Shown here: positions 7,664 through 45,085 of the stretch, in pieces | Layout: every line of letters starts with the position of its first letter | Numbering within the stretch: position 1 is the stretch's first letter | Origin: a virus | Lineage: Duplodnaviria > Heunggongvirae > Uroviricota > Caudoviricetes | Length of the DNA: 64,000 bases | Strand: one strand, 5' to 3' | IMG/VR virus record: IMGVR_UViG_2974549561_000001 | Location: 1-64,000 of that record | Translations under genes and position numbers: made by a program | Notes under the pieces: model-generated | Databases searched by the model: none | Told to the model about the DNA's origin: nothing | What the model saw: only the letters and a program-made list of their open reading frames with translations

Positions 7664-7690
7664 AAGTCAACAAGTGACTTTCAATAAAAT
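7664..7690 (+). promoter_or_regulatory. candidate late promoter
   Basis: AAGTCAACAAGTGACTTTCAATAAAAT; the ACAAGTGAYTT motif recurs upstream of lyz, R and prt. Confidence 0.35.
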
Positions 7691-12551: not shown

Positions 12552-13061
12552 ATGGGGCACAATAACACTAAGGGAAACCGTAAATTTATTAAGGGCCGCT
12601 ATACTGCCAACGCGGCCAAAGGCGAACGACTGGTATCTTCTGAATTCCAGCTCACTTTTGCAGGCCATGAAGATATCAGTGTACTGGTTCGTACGTCGCA
12701 AATCCCTGAAATGACTCGCGAGGATGTGGAGGACTATGGTCCGAATGGTGTGAAGTTCAACCAGCACGGACCAATTCGAAACTCTGGGGAAATCCAGGTC
12801 CAGTGCGTGGAGACTATCGAAGGCGATATTCTTCAGTTCATTAAGGATCGCATTGCGGCGAAGGACTATGTTGATATCACGATGGCTGCTACCCCTGAAT
12901 CCAAATCTTCCGGGGTTAACGCTGTGACAAAAGCTGCTACAACAATTGAAATGTTGGACTGCAAAATCTACAGTGATGCAATCGACTTTAGTACCGAAGA
13001 TGTGACTGCCGCTGTGCGCCCGTCACTTCGTATCGTCTACAACTGGATTGAGTGGGATTAA
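12552..13061 (+). CDS. hypothetical structural protein
   Basis: 169-aa ORF 12 bp after the previous gene; operon ends at the 13083 terminator. Confidence 0.45.
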   Translation: MGHNNTKGNRKFIKGRYTANAAKGERLVSSEFQLTFAGHEDISVLVRTSQIPEMTREDVEDYGPNGVKFNQHGPIRNSGEIQVQCVETIEGDILQFIKDRIAAKDYVDITMAATPESKSSGVNAVTKAATTIEMLDCKIYSDAIDFSTEDVTAAVRPSLRIVYNWIEWD

Positions 13062-13082
13062 GAGTCATCCCTTGTATTTTAA

Positions 13083-13106
13083 AGCTCCTTCGGGAGCTTT
13101 TTTTAT
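13083..13106 (+). terminator. rho-independent terminator
   Basis: AAAGCTCC-ttcg-GGAGCTTT hairpin plus T-run. Confidence 0.6.
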
Positions 13107-13232
13107 AACCTTTTTATATAAAAATGCATCGATAACATTGTCTGGAGTTTTATGTTAGATTATTAATGTTCTAATAAACTACAATTATTGAGGTAGATGT
13201 TTGTGCCTGTACTGTTAAAGGGGGACTCTAAA

Positions 13233-13829: not shown

Positions 13830-14008
13830 CAGTAAAAAATTCCTTGCTCCTTGACAGAGGAGAGGATTAATCTAAGTACGCTAAGCATAGGTATGGCCCC
13901 GGTTAATGTTAAGCGTTGTGCGGGACGCATAATGTTTACTGGGGCTTTCTTTTATCTATTTTGGGATAATCCTGAATTCCGTAGTATTTGGCATCGGCTG
14001 CGGCTACA

Positions 14009-14239
14009 TCAGCGTTTGACTCTATTTCTATAGAAATCACCTGGAAGGGTGAATATCCACATCAGAAGAAACGTTGCAGCAAACATGATCCCTAATGGCC
14101 AGAATATGCCAAAAAAAATCATTATCCAAAAACGATCCCACCAGGCCATTTCTGCATTAGCTCGCAAAATATATCGACTTAATGCGTATATCAGTCCACC
14201 AATTAGTATATAGATGGGAATAGATACCAGGATAGTCAT
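14009..14239 (-). CDS. small hydrophobic membrane protein (doubtful)
   Basis: 76-87 codons, two to three predicted TM helices; lies directly downstream of the ail terminator with no room for its own promoter. Confidence 0.25.
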   Translation of the reverse strand: MTILVSIPIYILIGGLIYALSRYILRANAEMAWWDRFWIMIFFGIFWPLGIMFAATFLLMWIFTLPGDFYRNRVKR

Positions 14240-14280
14240 AGCGTTAGTCTCAATGAACATAACGAATATCACCAGAGCAA

Positions 14281-14310
14281 AGTATAAATCCCTCTGCGTA
14301 GGGCAGAGGG
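14281..14310 (-). terminator. rho-independent terminator of the ail-like gene
   Basis: CCCTCTGC...GCAGAGGG hairpin followed by a U-rich tract on the minus strand. Confidence 0.5.
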
Positions 14311-14319
14311 ACTAAATAG

Positions 14320-14835
14320 TTAAAATCGGTAACCGACACCAAGCATCCAAATGCTATTGCTTAGATCACCTGGTTTAGAACGTTCATACGAGAGATCAAC
14401 TGCAAACTGCGGAGATGGGTTAAATTGAAGCCCAAGTCCATAAGCAAAATCGGTTCCAAAGCCAGCATATGACTGTCCATTCAGTTTTGCTGTTGCATCC
14501 GCATGGCTTAAACCCACCAAGCCGTATGCACTCATTAATTCATTGAATCTGTATGACGGACCAAAAGTAAATGAGGCATACTCAACCTTGGCTTTGGCGG
14601 CATTCCATAGGTTTGTGTTTGACTTTTCGTAAGTGACCGAAGCTAATCCACCCCACGTAGAATCCATTTCGTAGCGATATTTAATATTCACGCCTTTTGG
14701 ATCTTTTATATCTCCGCCTTTAACCGTTGCGCTTCCTTGGGCAAAGTCTAAGGAGAGTGTGTGCTGATATGCGGAGGCAGTCCCAGCAACCCCCAAGGCA
14801 CATGCCAGAAGGGCCGTTAAAACTACTTTTTTCAT
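14320..14835 (-). CDS. Ail/Lom/PagC-family outer-membrane beta-barrel protein
   Basis: 171 aa; signal peptide MKKVVLTALLACALGVAGTASA, alternating beta-strand pattern, C-terminal LGVGYRF. Confidence 0.8.
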   Translation of the reverse strand: MKKVVLTALLACALGVAGTASAYQHTLSLDFAQGSATVKGGDIKDPKGVNIKYRYEMDSTWGGLASVTYEKSNTNLWNAAKAKVEYASFTFGPSYRFNELMSAYGLVGLSHADATAKLNGQSYAGFGTDFAYGLGLQFNPSPQFAVDLSYERSKPGDLSNSIWMLGVGYRF

Positions 14836-14930
14836 GGAAAAAGTTACCTATAAAAACGTTAAAAATAATACTGGTGACAAAATAGTGTGTATTGAGCGTT
14901 AAATACACGTAAAGATTCTATCATTCGCGA

Positions 14931-15773
14931 TCATCCGCGAAAACCAGTTGGAATATAAAATTCCTTTTCTTTTCTTGTAGATAGGACCATATCCAGAGCT
15001 TCGTTTACCGTCATGCAATGCGGCAGATTATCGAAGTTTGATATCCCGCCAATATCAGGAGAACGCTTGCTCTTCAGGTAAGCATATTTCCGGGCCGCTG
15101 CCTCAACTTTCTGCTGGAACTCATGTTTTTGAGCGCGTTTTTTGGATAACCGCAGATTGTCGGCCTTTGCTTTTGCACCAGCGATCCATGAAGTCAATTT
15201 TTTGAGTTTGGTCGTTCCGGCAGCGCCGGAAACTGATCTTTTTGTTTTTTTAACTTGTGACTTCTTATTCTTTATTGCCACGTCATCCTGACAGGGGGAG
15301 GGGGTATCATTTTGACATGGGGGTGTGGATAAAAAATTAAATAAAGTCAATGTCTTAGCGAGAACAGCTTTAACCTTGGTTGCCGCTGAAGAGATCTTTA
15401 ATTTGCTTTCAATCAGCGCATTTTTGGCTTGTTGTGCGAAGGCCAAAAAGGATGGTGTAAACCGGTACAGGTTAGCGCGACGTTCACGGTGATCGCCGAT
15501 AACAATCTCTACAGACAGGATTCCTTTGTTTACAGCTTCACGGAATGCACGAACGACGGTTGATTGGCTATAACCAGTTTCTGCCGCGATCAGGCGGTGA
15601 GGCTTGTGAATGAAGTATTCACTGGTTGTTGCCGCGAGATTTGCACATTGCGACAGGATATGCCCGGCGCTACGGGATAGACCGGAGTGTGTTACAAAGC
15701 AGGCCAATTCATAGCCAGAAAAAGTAAAATCGCTCATCGTTATACAGCTCAGGAAAGTGACTTTAGCCAGCAT
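14931..15773 (-). CDS. repL: lytic replicon initiator RepL
   Basis: 280 aa directly downstream of kilA; HTH-like ETGYSQSTVVRAFREAV; size and order match P1 kilA-repL. Confidence 0.6.
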   Translation of the reverse strand: MLAKVTFLSCITMSDFTFSGYELACFVTHSGLSRSAGHILSQCANLAATTSEYFIHKPHRLIAAETGYSQSTVVRAFREAVNKGILSVEIVIGDHRERRANLYRFTPSFLAFAQQAKNALIESKLKISSAATKVKAVLAKTLTLFNFLSTPPCQNDTPSPCQDDVAIKNKKSQVKKTKRSVSGAAGTTKLKKLTSWIAGAKAKADNLRLSKKRAQKHEFQQKVEAAARKYAYLKSKRSPDIGGISNFDNLPHCMTVNEALDMVLSTRKEKEFYIPTGFRG

Positions 15774-15802: not shown

Positions 15803-16603
15803 TTAGCGCGTTGCCGCGACAGGTACCAGCACACCAGCATCAAGCAATCGCTTCATCAGCCACTGCTGACCTTTGCCGGTTATACGAGTCGTGAAAGAAA
15901 TCCTGCTTCCGTTGCTTGTGTCGATCACGGTTTCTTTGAGGGTGAAGTACCCACGGGATATGTATTCTTGTTTGGGGACGTTCCTGCGTTCACCGGTTGC
16001 GATCAGAATTCCGTTATCACGCAACCAGGTGAAGAGATAGTTTTGGCCCAGGCCGAGCACTTTGGCATAGTTGCCGATTAGAACCCCGCTGGCGGTAGCA
16101 ACGCGTTCGGCGAATTCGACTTTAGGTGCATCCATAAGCATTTTTTGCTCCAGCCGTTGCTTTTGCTCTGCCAGGTCGGCAGCCAAACGGAGAGCTTCAG
16201 GGAGACTCTGCGGAATAGCAGGTTGTAATCTTCCGGCTCGATAGTCGATAAATGTCTGGTTTACCTTCAGCCGAAATGCGGGAGAAATCCAGCCTGCGTA
16301 CTCCACAGCGAGCAATTCATGGGCAAAAGTGCCGCCGCCACGGCCTTCGAACGAAACTATGCAATTCTGCATAGTTTCTTTTTCAAGCTCTTCGATGAGC
16401 TGTTTGGCTGACAGCGTTCTTAGCCATTGAGCTGGCGCTTTATGGGCACCGAGTCCGCTCGCTCTGTGTAGAGCATTAAGGTTGTAACGGCCAGCGCGGT
16501 CGGTCGTAATTTCAACACCACAAATAACGGGCAGAGTGGTTGAAGGATCGACATTTTGATGAAGGTTTGATATATTCATATCCGCATTGAATGTTTGTTG
16601 CAT
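15803..16603 (-). CDS. kilA: KilA
   Basis: 266 aa; C-terminal half paralogous to Ant C-terminus (PAIPQSLPEALRLAADLAEQKQRLEQ vs PSIPQTLPEALRLAAELAEQKMQLEQ). Confidence 0.7.
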   Translation of the reverse strand: MQQTFNADMNISNLHQNVDPSTTLPVICGVEITTDRAGRYNLNALHRASGLGAHKAPAQWLRTLSAKQLIEELEKETMQNCIVSFEGRGGGTFAHELLAVEYAGWISPAFRLKVNQTFIDYRAGRLQPAIPQSLPEALRLAADLAEQKQRLEQKMLMDAPKVEFAERVATASGVLIGNYAKVLGLGQNYLFTWLRDNGILIATGERRNVPKQEYISRGYFTLKETVIDTSNGSRISFTTRITGKGQQWLMKRLLDAGVLVPVAATR

Positions 16604-16673
16604 TTTTTCTCCAAATTTGCATCAACCTTCAATCACCAGCTCGAAATGGTGATTCTTTGCACTTAGAAAACGA

Positions 16674-16690
16674 AATTTATTAGAGCAAAT
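16674..16690. promoter_or_regulatory. C1 operator (Op53-equivalent) between ant and kilA
   Basis: AAATTTATTAGAGCAAA, 16/17 to reverse complement of consensus. Confidence 0.6.
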
Positions 16691-34522: not shown

Positions 34523-34589
34523 GCAACAAATGACCGGTTGAGAAGTTACTTTGCATACCATTACCTCCTGACAACGTAGGAGGGAACTT

Positions 34590-45068: not shown

Positions 45069-45085
45069 AAATTAATTAGAGCAAT
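45069..45085. promoter_or_regulatory. C1 operator-like site between ssb and lyz
   Basis: AAATTAATTAGAGCAAT, 16/17 to reverse complement of consensus. Confidence 0.55.

Follow-up and report, generated by a model that had tools for sequence, protein, structure and literature searches.

Ail-family outer-membrane proteins carry determinants of serum resistance and invasion in their extracellular loops 2 and 3. Among related barrels, lambda Lom and metagenomic OmpX-like proteins (OMPTell) keep phages from adsorbing when overexpressed; Lom levels climb steeply towards the end of infection, and a role at that stage serving the phage's own kin has been proposed (PMC12366544). Interest in P1-like phage-plasmids now centres on their carriage of ESBL and other resistance genes in Salmonella and E. 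coli; among food-chain Salmonella, blaCTX-M-27 is spread by the SJ46 type. The rlfA-rlfB-pmgF slot of P1 represents variable region 5, one of the eight hypervariable regions of P1-like phage-plasmids (PMC9603915).

The window analysed here, the whole stretch of 64,000 nucleotides, is a P1-like phage-plasmid, and it encodes an outer-membrane barrel protein of the Ail/OmpX/Lom family. The barrel gene belongs to a minority lineage of these elements, the SJ46 type, and the stretch around it matches Salmonella plasmids of 103,441-103,445 bp at 100% identity. With an Ail/Rck/Lom-family surface protein, such an element could also confer virulence or phage resistance, a trait missed by typing that relies on AMR and toxin lists. 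Overall, the barrel gene is a real, correctly identified and unsurprising cargo gene in a known variable slot. Its one point of interest is the operon-like coupling to the lytic replicon.

A barrel protein of the Ail/Lom/OmpX family

The protein encoded by the barrel gene is identical to RefSeq WP_025210472.1, which PGAP labels as 'Ail/Lom family outer membrane beta-barrel protein'. The gene is thus already named at the family level in RefSeq. Two Pfam families matched well above their cut-offs, namely Ail_Lom PF06316 (81 bits, cut-off 23) and OMP_b-brl PF13505 (87 bits, cut-off 28.7), and PHROG 108, 'Lom outer membrane protein', matched at 2.6e-47. The best relative of solved structure was Y. 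pestis Ail (phmmer 1.6e-29, 41% identity), followed by OmpX (~1e-21) and lambda Lom (4e-13). An AlphaFold (AF2) model built with 32 homologues (pLDDT 86.5, pTM 0.79) displayed eight long strands and four short outer loops, and its top Foldseek matches were Ail 3QRA (TM 0.80/0.90) and OmpX 1QJ9 (0.76/0.87). Pfam, the PDB relatives, the AF2 model and Foldseek therefore agree with the original prediction of an 8-stranded barrel of this family.

Targeting signals were read by eye at both ends of the protein. The N-terminus, MKKVVLTALLACALGVAGTASA followed by YQ, contains MKK, a hydrophobic core and A-S-A, and the C-terminus carries the aromatic beta-signal G-V-G-Y-R-F. In the AF2 model, residues 2-18 formed a low-confidence helix lying apart from the barrel. 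A lipoprotein reading of the LLAC at residues 9-12 was rejected: Cys12 is not a lipobox cysteine, because it is replaced by Val in other alleles. Taken together, the profile matches, the predicted fold and the predicted targeting signals all fit the Ail/Lom/OmpX family. Among NCBIfam models, the OmpX equivalog NF006917 scored best (116.4 bits, cut-off 176), and the Rck equivalog NF011777 reached 79.4 bits against a cut-off of 258. Since both scores fall below the equivalog cut-offs, the protein is neither an OmpX orthologue nor an Rck orthologue.

The barrel gene shares its strand with repL and lies 95 nt past the stop codon of that gene (14931; Table 1); the kilA and repL genes upstream are 96-98% identical to those of P1. 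The feature had been outlined as 14281-14835; it is real, but the start of that span takes in the terminator, and the ORF itself covers 14320-14835. The terminator itself, also part of the original prediction, was well supported. Its hairpin begins seven bases past the stop codon of the barrel gene and comprises 11 pairs (6 G-C) followed by a T-rich tail, with a folding energy of -18.5 kcal/mol (z = -4.4) that none of 200 shuffled sequences equalled. Across 10 alleles the stem was invariant, only the loop being variable.

Table 1. Features of the window around the barrel gene, ordered by position.
Feature	Position	Strand	Evidence or remark
bplB	12552-13061	(+)	
198/210-aa ORF	13197/13233-13829	(+)	phrog_7522; in the place of P1 pmgF after bplB
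83-aa predicted multi-pass membrane-protein gene	14009..14260	(-)	phrog_3772 (PHROG 2.3e-41); annotated as SJ46 gp017
840-bp lineage-specific block	14121..14960		blastn breakpoints against RCS47 and pKBN10P04869B
Predicted intrinsic-terminator hairpin ending the barrel-gene transcript	14287..14313	(-)	terminator scans, folding energy, conserved stem
Barrel gene, Ail/OmpX/Lom family	14320..14835	(-)	ORF of 171 aa, ATG start, ends GVGYRF
Predicted Sec signal peptide of the barrel protein	14770..14835	(-)	residues 1-22, MKKVVLTALLACALGVAGTASA, cleavage after A-S-A
repL-barrel spacer, 95 nt	14836..14930	(-)	no C1 operator, late-promoter box or terminator
repL	14931-15773	(-)	lytic replicon, C1-controlled operon, directly upstream of the barrel gene
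kilA	15803-16603	(-)	KilA-N/ANT domains
C1 operator upstream of kilA	16673..16689	(-)	consensus search, 1 mismatch; equivalent to P1 OrepL/Op53, in agreement with the position annotated in P1
ant	16768-17814	(-)	

A lineage-specific block in variable region 5

The region next to repL was compared among P1-like genomes, as the original prediction had proposed, and its claim that the gene is absent from P1 held. In reference P1 (NC_005856), the interval between repL and bplB contains the C1 operator Orlf, rlfA, rlfB and pmgF, and no barrel gene. P7 carries rapA/rapB in the post-repL slot, and the sister elements RCS47 and pKBN10P04869B carry an IS605-family TnpB gene in the slot of the barrel block. 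In other P1-like elements no such occupant is present, and repL is followed after 50 nt by a small membrane-protein gene and then hok. The barrel gene and its terminator separate repL from the small membrane-protein gene, so that two genes adjoining elsewhere now flank it; for this reason its placement is that of a moron. The G+C content of the barrel gene (0.43-0.45) is not distinct from that of its flanks (0.39-0.49), and hence the description as a lysogenic-conversion moron finds partial support: placement and terminator are those of a moron, composition is not, and a promoter of its own is at most a candidate.

Pairwise blastn against RCS47 and pKBN10P04869B placed the homology breaks at 14120/14121 and 14960/14961, both inside neighbouring genes. 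The right breakpoint lies within repL (14931-14960 (-)), whose last ten codons read ...EKEFYIPTGFRG here versus ...NEQWGIPAGFRG in P1. These codons differ from P1 and RCS47 yet remain recognisably related, and the C-terminus stays ...IPxGFRG. The left breakpoint lies within the 83-aa membrane-protein gene, which is chimeric: mainstream P1-like elements share its C-terminal half but not its divergent N-terminal half. Versions of this protein with 44% identity are encoded directly after repL and before hok in many P1-like elements, and the ORF was intact in 10 alleles with a dN/dS of 0.28. Judged from these breakpoints, the block was probably acquired by recombination, its source being a P1 relative of greater divergence in which the barrel gene was already present. 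The original prediction of an insertion beside the lytic replicon on the minus strand is correct as to position, but what lies there is a probably recombined block that includes a divergent 3' end of repL and a divergent 5' half of the 83-aa gene. A search for the donor revealed no plasmid DNA relative below 93.6% identity and no close copy in a collection of one genome per species. At the DNA level, the barrel gene had no match in a phage collection of 50,697 records, from which SJ46 is apparently absent, and the best protein match in that collection was a Lom-like protein of Fels-1 with 36% identity.

Several observations concern the neighbouring sequence. The 198/210-aa ORF had no Pfam, NCBIfam or PADLOC match and is common to RCS47 and many plasmids; other P1-like lineages have hokD in its place. 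A hok/sok-type leader without a toxin was found at 13868-14120; it has ~81% identity to the sequence immediately ahead of hok in other P1-like elements and matches segments annotated as mok and sokW in Rac and 933W. The window as a whole contains no Hok ORF. In place of the hok toxin gene lies the 3' end of the convergent 198-aa gene, apparently as its replacement, and the stretch may be an orphan antisense-RNA remnant. Rfam families gave only sub-threshold matches around the barrel gene. One of them, to the 3' part of the enterobacterial sRNA STnc130, fell in the spacer downstream of bplB at 13081-13118 (-); it scored 33.9 bits (E 0.013), where the gathering score is 55, and may be merely a terminator-like hairpin.

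The distribution of the barrel gene was narrow. It occurred in 36 of ~515 repL-positive PLSDB plasmids (7%) at an identity of at least 93.6%, and in 9 of 5,426 complete E. coli genomes. The 36 plasmids came from Escherichia albertii (24, many from wild birds), E. coli (7) and Salmonella (5, including plasmids of 103,445 bp). The region was collinear in all 36 and, over 4.2 kb, in five IMG/VR contigs. Recent spread is indicated by an identical allele shared between Salmonella and E. coli. The nearest proteins outside P1-like elements, with 42-46% identity, were from Arsenophonus, Photorhabdus and Xenorhabdus, and the Arsenophonus relatives (~46%) are extra genes in the tail clusters of lambda-like prophages. 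In the papers searched, neither a phenotype linked to the barrel gene nor any mention of it was found.

All 10 alleles compared retained an intact ORF of 171 codons, and the mean dN/dS was 0.23 (0.20 for the mature part). A 168-kb conjugative IncF plasmid (NZ_OZ039654.1, 88846-92940) also keeps the gene, within a short stretch derived from P1. The intact alleles, the low dN/dS and this retention argue that the gene has a function. As read from its alleles, it is a real, selectively maintained accessory gene under purifying selection. None of the ~15 amino-acid differences among alleles fell in the predicted extracellular loops, where ~2 would be expected, a difference that is not significant. 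Two further settings were noted. The fragment in NZ_OZ039654.1 extends from a partial bplB to the barrel gene with IS elements on both sides, which places the gene off the phage-plasmid backbone. On the chromosome of E. coli ST2747 (NZ_CP007393.1), a P1-like segment containing the barrel gene, repL, kilA and icd adjoins a truncated lambda-type gpJ pseudogene; this reflects either the integration or rearrangement of a P1-like element or a join made during assembly.

Candidate transcription signals

The spacer between repL and the barrel gene contains a Shine-Dalgarno-like TAGGT (14850-14846) and an AT-rich hairpin, and it folded no better than shuffled sequences (z -0.67), giving no sign of a terminator or structured element. 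A scan for consensus sigma-70 promoters gave no match inside these 95 nt. The sole consensus-type match near the barrel gene (9/12) lies inside repL, and such matches occur in the scan at chance frequency. By eye, TGATAGAAT (14923-14915) was recognised as a candidate extended -10 that overlaps the stop codon of repL. In alleles from which 10 nt are deleted, TGATAAACT, a TGATA-type motif, is retained at an unchanged distance from the start codon. As a promoter of its own for the barrel gene, TGATAGAAT is suggestive and no more.

Direct control of the barrel gene by C1 or by a late promoter was examined and rejected. The spacer lacks the Orlf operator of P1, and a consensus search allowing up to three mismatches placed the nearest C1 site upstream of kilA. 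With a pattern combining the -22 box and -10 of the annotated P1 LP23, no late (Lpa-dependent) promoter site was found upstream of the barrel gene on the minus strand in the window. The same searches yielded perfect late-promoter sites on the plus strand at 7672-7690, which has the sequence of P1 LP23, 28019-28037 and 34543-34561, and further C1 operators with one mismatch on the minus strand at 601-617, 18345-18361 and 45069-45085. These sites can serve as landmarks for annotating the element. In addition, a palindrome at the start of repL (15745-15773, AAGTCACTT/AAGTGACTT) has the same form as the -22 box of P1 late promoters, with no matching -10 on either strand.

From the C1-controlled kilA promoter as far as the barrel gene, terminator scans and folding of the minus strand revealed no terminator; the first strong one on this strand downstream of that promoter is the hairpin behind the barrel gene. 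Because no terminator intervenes, the barrel gene may, after induction, be transcribed as the last gene in the operon of the lytic replicon. It may accordingly be switched on together with lytic replication, with or without a low constitutive level. Such operon-like continuity fits a role in the phage phase better than one in the lysogen phase.

Possible roles and relation to known systems

Our leading explanation, held tentatively and at somewhat less than an even chance, is that the gene encodes an accessory surface barrel in a hypervariable slot with a family-typical role benefiting the lysogen, namely complement resistance or adhesion. Its pre-protein would be exported via Sec with cleavage of the signal after Ala22, and the mature chain of 149 residues would be inserted by BAM as an OmpX-sized 8-stranded barrel, whose four short extracellular loops would alter the surface of cells carrying the element. 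In P1 a C1 operator guards the slot; the barrel gene has lost it. Low expression would start from the weak extended -10 promoter overlapping the repL stop, stronger expression would follow by read-through from kilA-repL once C1 repression is lifted, and transcription would stop at the gene's own hairpin. The outcome would be an Ail/Rck/OmpX-like phenotype, a changed interaction between the cell surface and host factors, for example complement resistance or adhesion, that aids the lysogen. Compared with Ail, loops 2 and 3 of the barrel protein are shorter (alignment gaps of 4 and 1 residues). These shorter loops, and the scores below the OmpX and Rck cut-offs, make the transfer of serum-resistance and invasion phenotypes weak.

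The operon-like arrangement could instead point to a role serving the phage, an explanation that we consider possible but unlikely. As the last gene of a kilA-repL-barrel unit induced when C1 repression is lifted, the barrel would flood the outer membrane and block the adsorption of P1-like or competing phages, thereby protecting the producer cell and saving progeny from loss to infected cells or debris. The adsorption blocking by Lom and OmpX-like barrels offers a recent experimental precedent (PMC12366544). The uninterrupted stretch from the C1-controlled kilA promoter to behind the barrel gene, the C1 control of the P1 slot through Orlf, and the phage-borne nature of the whole clade, the 46%-identical relatives included, all point in this direction. 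However, the loss of the local C1 operator argues against strict lytic-only control, and read-through is deduced from the absent terminator alone. PADLOC defence models matched neither the barrel protein nor the 83-aa membrane protein nor the 198-aa neighbour. P1 adsorbs to the LPS core and is not known to use a protein receptor, and a masking mechanism would therefore need to differ from any mechanism that acts on a Lom receptor. It appears slightly more doubtful still that the barrel gene is not a lysogenic-conversion gene at all but a terminal lytic-operon gene that remodels the outer membrane to block adsorption of P1-like or competing phages. If this were true, Lom-type self-exclusion would extend to a myovirus phage-plasmid that binds LPS, and the Ail/Lom proteins carried by phages might generally serve the phage and not bacterial virulence. 

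Two other explanations carry less weight. An extra OmpX/Ail barrel might support the envelope by stabilising its lipid and LPS organisation or by altering permeability, and it could also change beta-lactam susceptibility in carriers of this CTX-M-27 phage-plasmid. This is improbable. It agrees with the OmpX-like size and short loops of the protein, with the requirement of Y. pestis Ail for outer-membrane lipid homeostasis at 37 C described in PMC8508112, and with a Salmonella Ail/OmpX-like protein linked to ceftriaxone resistance in a study cited in PMC8085198. Nevertheless, it depends on analogy alone, the hosts already encode OmpX, and most carriers (E. albertii from wild birds) come from outside resistance-selected settings. 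More improbable again is that the gene is neutral cargo that hitchhiked from a divergent P1 relative and is now functionless. The rarity of the gene and the arrival of its block by recombination, with breakpoints inside neighbouring genes, would suit such passive carriage, but the ORFs intact in 10 of 10 alleles, the low dN/dS, the conserved terminator stem and the retention of the gene in a degraded P1 fragment on the IncF plasmid all speak against it. A surface barrel benefiting the lysogen stays the leading explanation. Because the barrel gene lies directly behind the lytic replicon, it provides a usable test case for the question of whether phage-encoded Ail/Lom barrels serve the bacterium, through complement resistance or adhesion, or the phage, through adsorption blocking.

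In comparison with known systems, Ail of Y. pestis and Y. enterocolitica is the closest match in sequence and structure, sharing the 8-stranded barrel, the signal peptide and the C-terminal ...GYRF; it differs in being a chromosomal, proven virulence factor with longer loops 2 and 3. E. coli OmpX has a precursor of 171 aa like the barrel protein and 34-39% identity to it. In contrast, the barrel gene is borne on a phage-plasmid whose hosts have their own ompX, and its product scores below the OmpX equivalog cut-off. The proteins of Arsenophonus and Photorhabdus are the closest outside P1-like elements, and the Arsenophonus copies are likewise prophage-borne extra genes. These copies, however, sit between tape-measure and minor-tail genes in another phage type, position and host family, and the Arsenophonus and Photorhabdus proteins are larger (178-186 aa) with longer loops.

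With lambda Lom and the Lom-like proteins of lambdoid, Gifsy and Fels phages, the barrel protein shares PHROG 108, and both are temperate-phage cargo with their own terminators. Lom is expressed weakly in the lysogen and strongly during lytic growth (PMC12366544), a behaviour that the barrel gene may share. Identity to these proteins is only 31-36%, and Lom differs in its length of ~200 aa, its longer loops and its position at the tail-fibre end of a lambdoid late operon, whereas the barrel gene comes after the lytic replication gene in a plasmid prophage of the P1 myovirus type. Finally, P1 rlfA/rlfB and P7 rapA/rapB occupy the same position and orientation directly downstream of repL in region 5. 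The P1 slot nonetheless encodes unrelated proteins, RlfA being a cytoplasmic DUF3800 protein, and has the C1 operator Orlf ahead of it.
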